Positions 7,471 to 24,562 of a stretch of 64,000 nt of DNA are shown here, in pieces (position 1 is the first letter of the stretch; each line of letters begins with the position of its first letter). This stretch comes from Candidatus Vogelbacteria bacterium. GTDB taxonomy: Bacteria > Patescibacteriota > Minisyncoccia > Phycocordibacterales > JACOZG01. The stretch covers positions 25,130 through 89,129 of the forward strand of contig JAZDGA010000001.1 of NCBI GenBank assembly GCA_043807405.1, given 5' to 3'. A program made the translations under genes and the position numbers. Under the pieces are notes generated by a model. It did not search any database. It was given only the letters and a program-made list of their open reading frames with translations, and was not told the DNA's origin.

Positions 7471-8142
7471 TCACATGGGTTCTTCAACCACCTTTCCATC
7501 CTCGCCCACCACCGGTTCTTTCCCGCGCTTCTCCACTTCGATCGCCGAGAGATCCACCGGCGCTTCTTCTTCAACTTCCTCTTTCGCCACCGAGATCCCG
7601 GCGACCACTTCATCTGGTTTGTGAGTCGTCGTCACGCCCGCCGGTAAAACTAAATCTTTAACTAAAATCTGACTCTCGAGCGTCGCCAGTGGAGTGACAT
7701 CCACCGTAATCCCGCGCGGTAAATCTTTTGGCAAAGCTTCGATTTCCAATTCATGAAGCACCTTGAGTAATATTCCGCCGAGTTCCTTCACCGCCGGCGC
7801 GAGACCGGTATACTCGATTGGAATTTTAATTTTAAGCATCACATCCTGCTCAATCACATAAAGATCAGCGTGAACTAGTTCACTATTAACCGGATGATAA
7901 GCCACTTCGTGAATCAAAACGCTTTTCTTCCCCGCAGGAGTAGTGAGTGTAATAATTGACGATTCGCCGGCTAATTTGAGTACTTTTTTGAAATCCGCGA
8001 GCGAGACAAAAAGCGAAGTCGGCTTGTCTTTATGACCATAGACCACGACAGGTAAACGCCCGGCACGGCGCTCTTTTTTCAACTCCTTGCCAAAAATTGT
8101 CCGTTCTTTCGCTTCAAGCGTAAACATCCCTCTATTATGCAC
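7471..8142 (-). CDS. rplY: 50S ribosomal protein L25/Ctc
   Basis: FTLEAKERTIFGKELKKERRAGRLPVVVYG and PIEYTG motifs. The track start at 8142 is GTG; the ATG at 8125-8127 (MFTLEA) is the more likely start. Confidence 0.85.
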   Translation of the reverse strand: MHNRGMFTLEAKERTIFGKELKKERRAGRLPVVVYGHKDKPTSLFVSLADFKKVLKLAGESSIITLTTPAGKKSVLIHEVAYHPVNSELVHADLYVIEQDVMLKIKIPIEYTGLAPAVKELGGILLKVLHELEIEALPKDLPRGITVDVTPLATLESQILVKDLVLPAGVTTTHKPDEVVAGISVAKEEVEEEAPVDLSAIEVEKRGKEPVVGEDGKVVEEPM

Positions 8143-8162
8143 AGATTTAAAAAAAAGAAAAG
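8122..8162 (-). repeat. copy 1 of a 41-nt direct repeat: native rplY -10 region, SD and start codon
   Basis: aaacatccctctattatgcacagatttaaaaaaaagaaaag matches 8682-8722 at 39/41 positions. Confidence 0.85.
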
Positions 8163-8195
8163 GCGCACGATTAAACAGGGTTCAATGAAAGATAA

Positions 8196-8420
8196 TTACG
8201 CTGTTTGTCTTTGCCTTGCCAATAATTTTTGCGATTTTTGAAAAAATGAACTGGCTTCAAGAATCTCGACAAGAACAGGAATATGGTTCTTCGAGTAATG
8301 CACAACAAAATTCCCAGCCTCTTCAGCATAGTCAATCGGCTGAGACGATACTTCCCAACTCATCACATCAGCTTCCGACTCATAAGAAACCTTCAAATTT
8401 TTGGGCATTTTATTATTCAT
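8196..8420 (-). CDS. DUF2283-family protein (putative antitoxin partner of DUF4258)
   Basis: LKVSYESEADVMSWEVS...VVHYSKNHIPVLVEILEAS resembles the DUF2283 pattern. It overlaps the upstream DUF4258 gene by 4 nt. Confidence 0.7.
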   Translation of the reverse strand: MNNKMPKNLKVSYESEADVMSWEVSSQPIDYAEEAGNFVVHYSKNHIPVLVEILEASSFFQKSQKLLARQRQTA

Positions 8421-8671
8421 AATTTTTCGTATTGGCTACGACGACCCGGATAAAATGTTATGATGACCTGATCATCATCTTCTTCTCGATATACTACCCT
8501 CAATACATGTCGCTCGTCAATTTGTCTTTGAGCAATTAGGAGGGGCAATCGGCTATCATCAACTAGTTCCGGATCATCTACTATTGATATAACTAAGTCC
8601 CTAGTAACTCTAAAACCGTGCCTGGCCAAAACCATAAATTTTCGTTCGGCATGTTTAGTGAATCTGGTCAT
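8417..8671 (-). CDS. DUF4258-family protein (putative toxin)
   Basis: MTRFTKHAERKFMVLARHGF...VVYREEDDDQVIITFYP. Start trimmed to the ATG at 8669-8671; the longer track ORF runs into the duplicated rplY promoter. Confidence 0.7.
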   Translation of the reverse strand: MTRFTKHAERKFMVLARHGFRVTRDLVISIVDDPELVDDSRLPLLIAQRQIDERHVLRVVYREEDDDQVIITFYPGRRSQYEKL

Positions 8672-8681
8672 GACACTACAC

Positions 8682-8722
8682 AAACATCCCTCTATTATGC
8701 ACAGTTTTGAAAAAAAGAAAAG
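8682..8722 (-). repeat. copy 2 of the 41-nt rplY 5'-end repeat, now placed as promoter/leader of the DUF4258-DUF2283 cassette
   Basis: aaacatccctctattatgcacagttttgaaaaaaagaaaag. The relic ATG TTT GTG TAG reading frame stops after 3 codons. Confidence 0.85.
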
Positions 8723-8772
8723 CCCCTTGAAGTGATCGCGGGGCTTCATAGATCGAGAACTTGTGTTAGGTC

Positions 8773-9054
8773 TCAACTTTTTTCGCAATAACACAAACCA
8801 CTTTCATCGGGGATACACACATGCTTGTGTCCCGATTTTCTCCCCGGCAAATCTGAAGCCAAAATATCCTCCGAGCCAACAGTTATTGGTTCCGGGCAAC
8901 CGTTGAAGAAATGGCGTCTGATTTCAGCTCCAGTCACTGGCCCAGTGACGCCAGCATGATTGAACAGAGCGGTATCTCCCTTCGGGCAATCACACGGAAG
9001 ATCATTGTTTCCAGTCTCGATTATTCCAGTATCACTACATTTTTCACAGGTCAT
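8773..9054 (-). CDS. small Cys-rich protein (93 aa), hypothetical
   Basis: Strong AAGGAGG upstream of the ATG at 9054. CxxC...CDC and CxxxxxxxCxC clusters suggest metal binding. Confidence 0.55.
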   Translation of the reverse strand: MTCEKCSDTGIIETGNNDLPCDCPKGDTALFNHAGVTGPVTGAEIRRHFFNGCPEPITVGSEDILASDLPGRKSGHKHVCIPDESGLCYCEKS

Positions 9055-9100
9055 AAAGACCTCCTTTCTTATTTCAAACTATCATGCACAAATAAATTAA

Positions 9101-10075
9101 TCAAACTGTTGTACTAAATTCGGTGGGGTTTTTCCCTGCCAATCCGGCGAGAATGTTTTCGGCGACGAGCAGAGACATTGCTTGACGAGTTTCTTCCGTC
9201 GCCGAAGCTGTGTGCGGAGTCAAAATAACATTCGGCAAATCGGCGAGACCGGGCGCGAGTTGGGGTTCATGTTCAAACACATCCAGACCAGCGCCACGAA
9301 GCGCGCCAGTTCGCAACGCTTCAACTAAAGCCGTCTCATCCACCACCGGCCCGCGCGCGGTATTGATGAGAATCGCCGTCGGCTTCATTAACTTTAATCG
9401 CTCGGCGTTAATCAAATTCCGCGTCGAATCAAGCAATGGCACATGGACTGAAACAAAATCGGCTTGGTTCAAAACATCATCCACCTTGGCACAGTAAGTT
9501 GCACCATATTCTTTTTCAAACGACTCATTGCGGGTCACATCATAATAAATAATTTTCATCTCGAAACCGCGCGCACCGAAGTGCGCCATCCGCGCGCCGA
9601 TTCGTCCCAAGCCAACAATCCCTAAAGTTTTATCAACCAAATTCACCCCGAGGAAAAGCAACGGCGCCCAACCTTGGTATTCACCCGCGCGCACATAGTG
9701 ATCCGCTTCCGCTAACCGCTTGGCGACTGCGATCATCAAAGCGAAGGCGTGTTCGGCGACCGCGTCCGTGAGCACGCCGGGCGTATTGGTAATCATTATC
9801 CCCCGTTGTTTCGCTGTCGCCAAATCAATATTATCGGTTCCCACCGCGTAATTGGCAAAAATTTTCGTCTGCGGGGTAGCGGCAAAAACTTCATCATCAA
9901 TTTTATCCGTCAACAAACACAGCACAGCGTCATAGGGCGTCGCGCGAAGCGCAGTGATTAATTCTTCTTTCGTCAGCACGCCGTCCTTCTCACTCACGAC
10001 CACCTCATGCCCATTTTCTTTTAACAAATTCAGCCCGGCATCAGGAATCTTCCTGGTTACAAAAATTTTCGCCAT
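9101..10075 (-). CDS. D-isomer-specific 2-hydroxyacid dehydrogenase (glyoxylate/hydroxypyruvate reductase or D-glycerate dehydrogenase type)
   Basis: NAD-binding GIVGLGRIGARMA, plus HVPLLDSTRNLIN, ARGPVVDETAL and GAGLDVFEHEP. Confidence 0.85.
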   Translation of the reverse strand: MAKIFVTRKIPDAGLNLLKENGHEVVVSEKDGVLTKEELITALRATPYDAVLCLLTDKIDDEVFAATPQTKIFANYAVGTDNIDLATAKQRGIMITNTPGVLTDAVAEHAFALMIAVAKRLAEADHYVRAGEYQGWAPLLFLGVNLVDKTLGIVGLGRIGARMAHFGARGFEMKIIYYDVTRNESFEKEYGATYCAKVDDVLNQADFVSVHVPLLDSTRNLINAERLKLMKPTAILINTARGPVVDETALVEALRTGALRGAGLDVFEHEPQLAPGLADLPNVILTPHTASATEETRQAMSLLVAENILAGLAGKNPTEFSTTV

Positions 10076-17773: not shown

Positions 17774-18241
17774 TTAAAATTCCGGATTAGACTTTAATTT
17801 GTAATCGAGTTTAGTGATTCGTCGAATATGCCGATCGGCGCCAGAAAACGGCGTCTCCAGCCAAAGTTTGATAATTTCCTTAGCGCGGTCAAGCTCAACC
17901 AACCGAGCACCGAGAGACAAAATATTGGAATTATTGTGTTCGCGCGACAATTTAATCACCTCACTCGGACCGCCATAAAAAACCGCCGCTCGAACATGTT
18001 TGAACCGATTGGCGCACATCGCTTCACCCTGACCCGAACCGCCAAAAATAATTCCGCGATGATTCTCCGGATCAGACGCCACCATCTTGGCCACAATATC
18101 AATAAAATCTGGATAATCATCCGCCGGCTCGAGCTTGAACGCGCCTTCATCATTTGTCTCATACCCCAAAGAATGCAAATAAACCTTAATCTTCTCCTTC
18201 ATTTCAAACCCCGCATGATCAGATCCGAGAAAGATTTTCAT
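17774..18241 (-). CDS. rpiB: ribose-5-phosphate isomerase B
   Basis: MKIFLGSDHAGFEMK and GGSGQGEAMCANR motifs. Confidence 0.9.
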   Translation of the reverse strand: MKIFLGSDHAGFEMKEKIKVYLHSLGYETNDEGAFKLEPADDYPDFIDIVAKMVASDPENHRGIIFGGSGQGEAMCANRFKHVRAAVFYGGPSEVIKLSREHNNSNILSLGARLVELDRAKEIIKLWLETPFSGADRHIRRITKLDYKLKSNPEF

Positions 18242-18456
18242 TATATAAAATCCTGTTTTGATAATCCGGCAGACTTGATAATTGACAACAGGGTACCTTT
18301 TGGTAAATCGCCAGAATGAAACGGCAGGGTTACTCTTTTTTGATTATCTTTATTATACAAAATATAGTGGCTTCCTGTTGTGTGATCCACTTCAAAACTA
18401 TGACTTTCGAGAATTGCCAACACTTTCTTGAAGGTAATACCGGGTAATTTAGGCAT
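18241..18456 (-). CDS. hicA: HicA-family mRNA interferase toxin
   Basis: A 71-aa YcfA/HicA pattern (KKVLAILESHSFEVDHTTGSHYIL...LPFHSGDLPKGTLLSIIKSAG). Its stop overlaps the rpiB ATG by 1 nt. Confidence 0.85.
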   Translation of the reverse strand: MPKLPGITFKKVLAILESHSFEVDHTTGSHYILYNKDNQKRVTLPFHSGDLPKGTLLSIIKSAGLSKQDFI

Positions 18457-18703
18457 GGCGAACTTTTACATTCGCGGGGAAAGAGATTAAACTCACAAAA
18501 TTTTCTTGGTCCGAAGGCACTGGTTCTTCATGTTTTCTCATTGATTCTACGTAACCGTGAATAGCGTCTACTGCCATCTCTCTAGCTTCGCTAAGGTCTT
18601 TCCCATAACTTATACACCCTGGTAAAGAAGGAACGATGGTAGTAAAACCACCTTCCGGCTCGGCTCTAAAAATAACATTATATTGAAGTATTTTATCTTG
18701 CAT
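18449..18703 (-). CDS. hicB: HicB-family antitoxin
   Basis: YNVIFRAEPEGGFTTIVPSLPGCISYGKDLSEAREMAVDAI (UPF0150/HicB fold). Start trimmed to MQDK (18701-18703). Overlaps hicA by 8 nt. Confidence 0.8.
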   Translation of the reverse strand: MQDKILQYNVIFRAEPEGGFTTIVPSLPGCISYGKDLSEAREMAVDAIHGYVESMRKHEEPVPSDQENFVSLISFPANVKVRHA

Positions 18704-18758
18704 ATAATCAGAATACCTTAAACTACATTTAAGTTCAACTAATATCCATTTTCCTCCC

Positions 18759-18792
18759 ACCCCGCATGATCCGCGCCGAGGAAAATTTACAT
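18759..18792 (-). pseudogene. relic duplicate of the rpiB 5' end (ATG TAA ATT TTC CTC GGC GCG GAT CAT GCG GGG)
   Basis: Matches the real rpiB start region (18208-18241) at 28/34 positions. It would encode M*IFLGADHAG versus MKIFLGSDHAG. Confidence 0.7.
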
Positions 18793-22843: not shown

Positions 22844-22890
22844 ACCTCGATTCTACCCGCTAGGTTAGCATATCTAGGTTTAGATGTCAA
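22844..22890 (-). repeat. copy 1 of a ~47-nt promoter/5'-UTR direct repeat
   Basis: The minus strand reads TTGACAtctaaacctagatatgcTAACCTagcgggtagaatcgaggt. Its partner lies at 24514-24562. Confidence 0.75.
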
Positions 22891-24513: not shown

Positions 24514-24562
24514 ACCTCACGATTCTGCCCACTAGGTTAGCATATCTAGGTTTAGAAGTCAA
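24514..24562 (-). repeat. copy 2 of the ~47-nt promoter/5'-UTR direct repeat
   Basis: The minus strand reads TTGACTtctaaacctagatatgcTAACCTagtgggcagaatcgtgaggt. Confidence 0.75.

Follow-up and report, generated by a model that had tools for sequence, protein, structure and literature searches.

Gene order and repeats upstream of rplY

The locus analysed here lies at the start of rplY, the gene for ribosomal protein L25/CTC, in a 64,000-nt stretch of DNA from a Candidatus Vogelbacteria bacterium (the window; all coordinates are positions in it). The host genome (G000) was a metagenome-assembled genome (MAG) of 848 kb in 33 contigs with 5.6% contamination. Every gene in this part of the window was on the minus strand, where the order was a 2-hydroxyacid dehydrogenase (2-HADH) gene, the small open reading frame (ORF) ORF93, a hairpin with a T-run, a distal copy of a 41-nt sequence block, a putative toxin gene, a putative antitoxin gene, a proximal copy of the block and finally rplY (Table 1). 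The question was how the toxin-antitoxin (TA) pair came to stand between two copies of the same block.

Table 1. Features of the rplY locus (window coordinates)
Feature	Position	Strand	Remark
Intact rplY (ribosomal protein L25/CTC; ATG at 8127, 218 aa)	7471..8127	-	Pfam Ribosomal_L25p 4.7e-18, Ribosomal_TL5_C 3.4e-21
Proximal copy of the 41-nt rplY 5' block (T-run, TGTGCATAAT, AGAGGG, ATG TTT)	8122..8162	-	serves rplY
U, 15 nt, TGTTTAATCGTGCGC, ancestral sequence upstream of the block	8163..8177	-	contiguous with the proximal copy
Putative antitoxin (74 aa), DUF2283-like	8196..8420	-	start shares ATGA with the toxin stop
Putative RNase toxin (84 aa), DUF4258 family, BECR/RelE fold	8417..8671	-	homologues and fold
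Junction mini-ORF ATG TTT GTG TAG (8687-8676) and 4-nt spacer TGTC	8672..8687	-	precedes the toxin ATG
Distal copy of the 41-nt rplY 5' block	8682..8722	-	presumed promoter and translation entry of the TA pair
Intrinsic-terminator hairpin of ORF93 (AAGCCCC...GGGGCTT)	8720..8746	-	T-run of the distal block forms its U-tail
ORF93, Cys-rich small accessory protein	8773..9054	-	conserved Patescibacteria family
Partial block core (TGTGCATGATAG, 11/12), a third copy	9079..9090	-	12-nt relic just upstream of ORF93
2-hydroxyacid dehydrogenase gene	9101..10075	-	Pfam 2-Hacid_dh_C 8e-61

A repeat search of the window bore out the direct duplication that a sequence-only reading of this DNA had described. 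The two copies were identical at 39 of 41 positions (95%), stood 560 nt apart from start to start and read CTTTTCTTTTTTT(C/T)AAA(A/T)CTGTGCATAATAGAGGGATGTTT on the minus strand. The 23-nt core of the repeat had two matches in the window, compared with 0.00 expected from 100 shuffles, and the 661-nt region as a whole was single-copy in the genome. With at most one mismatch, TGTGCATAATAG was found at just four sites genome-wide, namely the two copies, the relic upstream of ORF93 and one unrelated site. Thus, the repeat was unique to this locus, and the possibility of a dispersed element, which the same reading had allowed for, was excluded.

The 519-nt interval between the copies held only two small ORFs and had a GC content of 0.39, compared with 0.46 for the genome. 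Past the distal copy, the sequence continued with GTG TAG TGTC up to the toxin ATG, so the relic rplY frame did end after three codons, as had been noted. Past the proximal copy, which itself ended in ATG TTT, it continued as ACG CTT in the frame of the intact rplY (the rplY sequence joining the block was ACGCTTGAAG), in keeping with the claim that this copy still serves rplY. The pair had also been placed exactly between the copies; it did lie between them, but the 10-nt leader and the 33-nt trailer at its margins meant that it was not exactly flush with either.

The repeat was the conserved 5' block of rplY

Orthologues of rplY were present in 41 of 41 relatives, and the repeat corresponded to the 5' block of this gene, which consisted of a T-run, CATAAT, AGAGGG and ATG TTT. 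All five other species genomes of the genus (G001-G005) had a single copy of the block before rplY, with the pattern CTTTTCTTTTTT..A.A..GTGCATAAT.GAG..ATGTT. The block was kept whatever gene preceded it, which was an aldolase gene in G005, a tRNA gene in G004, an FAD-oxidase gene in G001 and other genes elsewhere, and its T-run served also as the tail of the preceding gene's terminator. In G005, the closest relative, the block was identical to the proximal copy of the window at all 41 positions. The additional contigs had a single block too (L093, L098 and L106 among them), with L080 as the sole exception. A degenerate form of the block pattern was found at 14 loci in metagenome contigs, three of which were relevant: L098 and L106 were empty FAD-oxidase-block-rplY sites, and L107 was of the same type as L072 (see below). 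The exact 22-nt block pattern had no match in the metagenome contigs, and an exact-sequence look-up of the L25 protein and the toxin of the window returned no record. The repeat could thus be recognised, as proposed earlier, as the promoter and start region of rplY, which occurred once per rplY in the other species examined. No relative had the repeat without a cassette.

In the exceptional contig L080 (3590-4260), a GNAT acetyltransferase gene had a degraded rplY block on one side and an intact one on the other; here the same dock had been used a second time, independently.

Two versions of the locus in related genomes

The contigs with the closest toxin homologues (77-83% identity) had the gene order aldolase, FAD-oxidase, toxin, antitoxin, then a spacer, NUDIX, tRNA or GNAT gene, and then block, rplY and SLT. 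Thus, a TA pair upstream of rplY was common in the genus. We call this arrangement version 2 (contigs L072/L073, L080 and L081-L084); its general form would be the end of an upstream gene followed by toxin, antitoxin, further sequence, U, block and rplY. ORF93 was absent from 40 relatives. A homologue of it (83% identical) was found in contigs L093-L096 in the order ORF93, terminator, block, rplY, and in L095 a decayed block relic (TTTATTTTTTCAAAACTGTCCATAAAG), longer than the 12-nt relic of the window, stood upstream of ORF93 with an FAD-oxidase gene before it. Version 1 of the locus would accordingly comprise the tail of an FAD-oxidase or 2-HADH gene, the block relic, ORF93, its terminator, the 41-nt block and rplY. 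The last codons of the dehydrogenase in the window, ACA GTT TGA (ACAGTTTGA), appeared to resemble the FAD-oxidase tail at the same position in relatives.

Several comparisons connected the two sides of the window locus to these two versions. The blastn alignment between G005 and the window passed the edge of the repeat (8177-7493, 86%), and U (TGTTTAATCGTGCGC) was identical to the corresponding G005 sequence (TGTTTAGTCTCGCGC) at 12 of 15 positions. Since the alignment reached 8177, the ancestral order of U, block and rplY was intact at the proximal copy, with the pair upstream of U. The variant bases of the distal copy (TTTCAAAACTG) were those of the L095 relic and resembled L080, and the proximal form (TTTTAAATCTG) was identical in G005 and matched L093 and L072 apart from the length of the T-run. 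The toxin leader (GTGTAGTGTC) was homologous to GAAATAGTGGG in L086, where the pair abutted the end of a 2-HADH gene; this homology indicated that the leader came with the pair. The window thus read as version 1 through rplY codon 2, with version 2 taking over 10 nt ahead of the toxin ATG, and the sole novel joint was ATGTTT/GTGTAG.

A tandem duplication of the rplY promoter region could also have been purely local, with no part played by incoming DNA, if the TA pair was already beside rplY in the ancestor; the wide occurrence of the pair upstream of rplY in the genus would speak for this. However, such an event copies a contiguous segment, and the distal copy was instead tied to the ORF93 terminator, exactly as in the separate haplotype with ORF93, block and rplY. 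Together with the fact that no relative had the repeat without intervening cargo, this made a local duplication very improbable.

A chimeric joining of two co-existing strain haplotypes through the shared 41-nt block would produce a transition from block to rplY rather than ATGTTT/GTGTAG, and the observed joint, which shared at most 3-4 nt with any parent, must exist in reads. The copies also differed from each other (39/41), and similar imperfect repeats were found in independent assemblies of different projects. Even though the MAG was fragmented and partly contaminated, both haplotypes were present in related metagenomes and the repeat length fell within the k-mer range of assemblers, we judged an artefact the least probable of the explanations considered.

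Expression signals of the pair

The description of the cassette as promoter-less agreed with our analysis, as the TA pair had neither a promoter-like site nor a Shine-Dalgarno sequence of its own. By direct folding, the hairpin right before the distal copy had an energy of -19.5 kcal/mol (z -2.46), and nothing comparable preceded the proximal copy (z -0.15). Because of this hairpin, transcripts from upstream were expected to end before the distal block, and since the distal copy came directly after an intrinsic terminator, it was the only plausible promoter for the pair. The distal block (TGTGCATAAT) would be the only promoter-like element available to the pair, and the earlier suggestion that the upstream copy drives the cassette appeared well founded in this respect.

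The start codon of the distal block would open a mini-ORF of three codons (MFV-stop), with the toxin ATG 4 nt past its stop. The toxin was probably translated by termination-reinitiation, in relatives from whichever ORF preceded it. In every context examined, the toxin gene lacked a Shine-Dalgarno sequence and started at or just past the stop of the preceding ORF: the spacing was TGATG in L072, TAG plus 4 nt in L086 and in the window, TGA plus 4 nt in L092 and an overlap with a relic ORF in G002. In the window, this preceding ORF was a three-codon chimera made by the joint. No terminator was found between the antitoxin gene and rplY, so that the pair was not insulated from rplY. The proximal block would probably drive rplY, with read-through as a second source of its transcription.

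A crossover between two versions as the likely origin of the duplication

We considered it likely, with a probability of roughly 0.6, that the duplication at the locus arose when one illegitimate crossover joined two existing versions of it. In this genus of Patescibacteria, the stretch before rplY would be a hypervariable cassette site. The joint, between 8682 and 8681, would connect version 1 past rplY codon 2 (..GGGATGTTT) to version 2 (GTGTAGTGTC ATG), and a short microhomology was probably used. As the block stood downstream of the cassette in both versions, stacking them necessarily duplicates it. The process could correspond to homology-facilitated illegitimate recombination (HFIR), in which rplY/SLT would serve as the anchor for a fragment of taken-up DNA and the free end of this fragment would be joined inside the anchor region of the recipient. 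The arrangement characteristic of HFIR was indeed found: one side of the locus was collinear with version 2 (toxin, antitoxin, U, block, rplY), the other with version 1 (ORF93, terminator, block), and a single novel joint connected them. Proteins of DNA uptake were encoded in the genome, namely ComEC (PF03772, 165 bits) and DprA (PF02481, 220 bits).

The strongest competitor was a genuine insertion with long target duplication (ILTD), in which the cassette entered de novo between the block, preceded by ORF93 and its terminator, and rplY, and the insertion itself copied 41 nt of the target, perhaps through widely staggered nicks or a replication template switch. The architecture of repeat, cassette and repeat with a single block in relatives is what such an event would leave, and it has a precedent in restriction-modification (RM) systems (PMC2853133). 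Further points in its favour came from other loci described below: the same cassette family was bracketed there by other target-derived repeats of 11-126 nt, the HicAB cassette at the rpiB start had its promoter side next to the distal copy, as predicted, and empty sites were known for other cassettes. However, a target duplication predicts U outside the bracket and beside the distal copy, and U was found inside, beside the proximal copy. The pair already neighboured rplY in several relatives, and the differences between the repeats matched pre-existing alleles. We therefore regarded a target duplication as unlikely, though distinctly less so than the other alternatives. A plain ILTD of the TA cassette had been the first reading of the locus and was dropped on account of the synteny of the pair with rplY in relatives and of the position of U. 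The earlier statement that the cassette was inserted at the start of rplY while duplicating its expression signals was, as a simple de novo insertion, not supported for the same reasons, and also because the order ORF93, terminator, block, rplY existed separately.

A number of observations weighed against the crossover and the expression scheme associated with it. ComEC and DprA also occurred in non-competent bacteria that were included as controls, and they are necessary but not sufficient for competence. Versions 1 and 2 were known from other species of the genus, and the order and number of events were a matter of parsimony. The microhomology TTT/GTTT at the joint was a conjecture; related contexts ended in ..TTTG or GTTTGA, which would give 3-4 nt. 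U was only 15 nt long with 12 matches, and two variant bases were thin evidence for a separate allelic origin of the copies. With respect to expression, the block was not among the promoters called in a scan for sigma-70 sites and terminators (the scan also missed the ORF93 hairpin, whose loop was 12 nt), and AGAGGG stood just 0-1 nt from the ATG, so that the block sequence did not settle the true mode of initiation. Promoter use, translational coupling and read-through were deduced from sequence.

The toxin-antitoxin pair

The toxin aligned over its full length with Pfam DUF4258 (PF14076; 1-70/71) but scored below the cut-off of 25 bits (E=0.01, 16.6 bits), and the antitoxin likewise remained under the cut-off of 23 for DUF2283 (E=2e-4, 21.9 bits). 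Among 287 homologues of the toxin, some were named DUF4258 by their sources. Of the aligned homologues, 35 of 43 matched PF14076 (E<=0.01) and four matched the BECR-nuclease family PBECR3. Since most homologues matched the family that the window toxin itself reached only below threshold, this toxin belonged to a divergent subfamily. Its AlphaFold2 (AF2) model had a pLDDT of 94.4, and ranks 1-22 of a Foldseek search of the PDB with this model were HP0894, BrnT, YoeB, YafQ, HigB, ParE and RelE, with a probability of 0.54-1.0 and a template-modelling (TM) score of ~0.4-0.55. A sequence search of the PDB with the toxin profile gave chance matches only. DUF4258 has been described as an uncharacterised family of BECR-fold toxins in the RelE/ParE superfamily (PMC11980606).

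The genes adjoining the toxin homologues were flagged as DUF2283, though weakly. In about 40 of 46 antitoxin-related loci, spread across Patescibacteria, the toxin was directly upstream of a DUF2283-like gene, and the relatives of the organism were labelled as Saccharibacteria or Patescibacteria MAGs. The names DUF4258 and DUF2283 that had been given to the pair were thus supported by homologues and, for the toxin, by its predicted fold, but the scores of the two window proteins alone did not reach the Pfam thresholds. Sequence and model together suggested a putative type II-like module, in which a DUF4258 RNase toxin of the BECR/RelE fold is followed by a DUF2283 partner.

Repeat-bracketed cassettes at other loci

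The sequence-only reading had proposed a search for the same cassette with different flanking duplications, and such cases were found. In G002, a close homologue of the pair stood at the start of rpmG, bracketed by a repeat of 11 nt (AAATTATGTCC) and, as at rplY, placed immediately past codon 2. In G004, 56 nt of the 3' end of an FAD-oxidase gene bracketed the antitoxin alone, and in L086 about 48 nt of the 3' end of a 2-HADH gene bracketed a homologue of the pair. More distant homologues had flanking repeats of 25, 47, 73, 109 and 126 nt. Flanking repeats of at least 40 bits were present at 5 of 38 loci of the TA family, compared with 1 of 134 control windows made by shifting the position within these loci. 

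The antitoxin-only copy of G004 (L004, minus strand, 2660-2960) began with an ATGA in such a position that a new stop codon brought by the insert left the C-terminus of the host FAD-oxidase unchanged (..PTV-stop), with the 56-nt duplicate of the gene end coming after the insert.

Repeats of this kind were not limited to the TA family. A self-comparison of G000 by blastn gave 29 direct and 3 inverted repeat pairs at a spacing of 150-1000 nt. Reconstructed empty sites were contiguous in relatives for two cassettes, and several other cassettes were common to G005 with their repeats included. The repeat pairs that were inspected enclosed small cassettes, whose cargo included MazF, ParE, a Panacea antitoxin, NYN, an aspartyl protease, three Y1_Tnp genes and three PaaX-like genes (Cas2-like domain).

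Approximately 25-30 further small cassettes in G000 stood between imperfect direct repeats of 28-198 nt (for example, C11:30138-31334, C18:89310-89917, C18:6706-9321, C26:55910-56889, C27:6965-7867, C31:8489-9234 and C8:6557-7276). Two other loci of the window also had bracketing repeats. At 18208-18792 on the minus strand, a HicB-HicA cassette had the live start of rpiB on one side and, on the other, a duplicate of the rpiB 5' end that had decayed and now had TAA as its second codon; the hicA stop overlapped the live rpiB ATG, the same design as at the rplY locus. A 43-nt direct repeat with 93% identity (22848-22890 and 24520-24562) bracketed an ORF of 448 aa with a coiled-coil N-terminus.

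The diversity of cargo and repeats also bore on whether the block might be an attachment site for site-specific, integron-like or transposase-mediated capture. ORF93, the TA pair and the GNAT gene of L080 all landed at or in the same block, and the genome had three Y1_Tnp genes, which would be in line with such capture. On the other hand, the cassette ends were not conserved among four contexts of close homologues, the repeats were target-specific and ranged from 11 to 126 nt instead of having a fixed length, and neither terminal inverted repeats nor attC-like hairpins were found. No recombinase or transposase was encoded in or next to the cassette, which left the features of a transposon or insertion sequence (IS) absent. 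The features of an integron cassette were also lacking, since the ends differed in the four contexts and the 3' end had no hairpin; an integrase was not searched for. We considered site-specific capture to be highly unlikely. The three repeat-bracketed Y1_Tnp genes were rejected as mobilisers of the cassettes, because Y1 transposases are not known to duplicate their targets and the cassette ends had no common motif. A retrotransposition origin, which the tight boundaries of the cassette had brought to mind, was set aside as well, as the cassette ended in neither poly-T nor a terminator and a reverse transcriptase was lacking.

Further variation at rplY in related contigs

In the contigs with ORF93, block and rplY, the L25 gene stopped short at ~85-113 codons at a GTCAAGG...CCTTGAC palindrome and was followed by a NUDIX gene (L093:780-900). 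The same palindrome family (CAAGGTTCGACCTTG) also adjoined several repeat-bracketed cassettes in G000. In L072 (2990-3270), and also in L081 and L107, the antitoxin gene and rplY were separated by a spacer of ~300 nt that looked structured. In L072, this spacer came with a TTGACA-17-TATAGT promoter of its own, and its ends were complementary over a long stretch (GGGGAGGTGGTGG...CCACCACCCCCC). No Rfam family matched it at E<=0.01, and it may be an unrecognised or reduced RNA gene.

Implications for gene gain in Patescibacteria

Taken on its own, the rplY locus was of moderate interest, and it would gain interest as one instance of a way of acquiring genes that acts across the genome in bacteria of the Candidate Phyla Radiation (CPR). 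We tentatively suggest, as an idea that is more doubtful than the crossover at rplY itself, that the main route of gene gain in the ultra-small genomes of CPR/Patescibacteria may do without an integrase: short selfish cassettes (TA modules, nucleases and small ORFs), many of them promoterless, would be stacked at gene boundaries through illegitimate recombination of taken-up DNA. If this were true, each stacking event would copy 10-200 nt of a host gene terminus and give the cassette private host expression signals. Strong housekeeping promoters, such as those of rplY, rpmG and rpiB, would then be recurrent docks for cassettes, and the rplY locus with its three stacked block copies would be a case caught in the act. 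In this way, accessory genes would still be shuffled in a reduced genome, even where the locus has no evident mobility gene.

Because stacking recombination duplicates the promoter and the start codon, small addiction modules could land behind the promoter of an essential ribosomal-protein gene and leave that gene unbroken. The toxin gene would borrow both its transcription and its translation from a ribosomal-protein gene, which would tie the dosage of the TA pair to growth-rate control. The crossover also offers a testable mechanism, in which homologous anchoring on one side is combined with an illegitimate joint that lands inside the anchor. It would extend the poorly understood ILTD from RM systems in a few competent pathogens to TA and other small cassettes in Patescibacteria.

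Comparison with known systems

The closest known parallels were Kobayashi's insertion with long target duplication and the arrays formed by HFIR. Nobusato et al. 2000 (Gene 259:99) reportedly described insertion with long target duplication of restriction-modification gene complexes. Furuta, Abe & Kobayashi 2010 (PMC2853133) recognised ILTD by an insert of <20 kb, a direct repeat of >30 bp that is single in the uninterrupted site, and the absence of a mobility gene. At the rplY locus, the size of the insert and the length of the repeat fell within these limits, the site of the relatives gave a single alignment, no mobile gene was present and the repeat was not dispersed. An ILTD also leaves both original flanks outside the repeats, and here U was located between the cassette and the proximal copy. 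The ILTD of RM systems involves no mobility genes and is found mostly in competent species (PMC2853133). As in those cases, the rplY locus had a small addiction-type unit without a mobility gene and long (>30 bp), variable, imperfect direct repeats derived from the target; the repeat was single in a related genome, and ILTD is frequent in species with a DNA-uptake machinery (PMC2853133). In contrast to the RM examples, the cargo was a TA pair and the host was a CPR/Patescibacteria genome in which such structures were very dense. The duplicated piece consisted of a promoter and a start codon that the cargo would then use, and the ancestral upstream flank did not lie on the side where simple duplication of the target would put it. 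Thus, the locus could be described, from its sequence, as a recombinational stacking variant of ILTD in which the module would borrow the expression signals of rplY.

HFIR is said to have been described by de Vries & Wackernagel 2002, Prudhomme et al. 2002 and Meier & Wackernagel 2003. The same logic has been proposed for orphan-immunity arrays of type VI secretion systems (T6SS) and for the displacement of Rhs C-termini (Kirchberger et al. 2017, PMC5361080). In these arrays, as in our proposal, homology anchors one side of the incoming allele and the other side is joined illegitimately; the resident cassette is not lost but moves along, and a conserved boundary is repeated between the stacked cassettes. 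The boundary at rplY was, however, a 41-nt promoter and start of a ribosomal-protein gene instead of the constant region of a toxin gene, and the event in this lineage was deduced from sequence, with the anchor and the microhomology inferred.

A further likeness existed to integrons, whose gene cassettes are expressed from the Pc promoter and whose attI contains a short leader ORF that helps translation. Both systems have promoterless cassettes stacked at one site behind a host-side promoter, and a short upstream ORF possibly aids translation. Unlike integrons, the rplY locus had no attC and no common recombination site, and each cassette was followed by a promoter block of its own instead of sharing one.

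With regard to its genes, the pair resembled type II modules of the RelE/ParE (BECR-fold) type with toxin-first order, such as BrnTA and HigBA. It shared with them a small toxin of a RelE/BrnT-like fold, an overlapping downstream partner gene and a pairing that was conserved across genomes. It differed in that DUF4258 is experimentally uncharacterised (PMC11980606) and that the DUF2283 partner had no recognised DNA-binding domain. Moreover, the subfamily found here appeared to have no promoter of its own and to be coupled instead to the preceding ORF.

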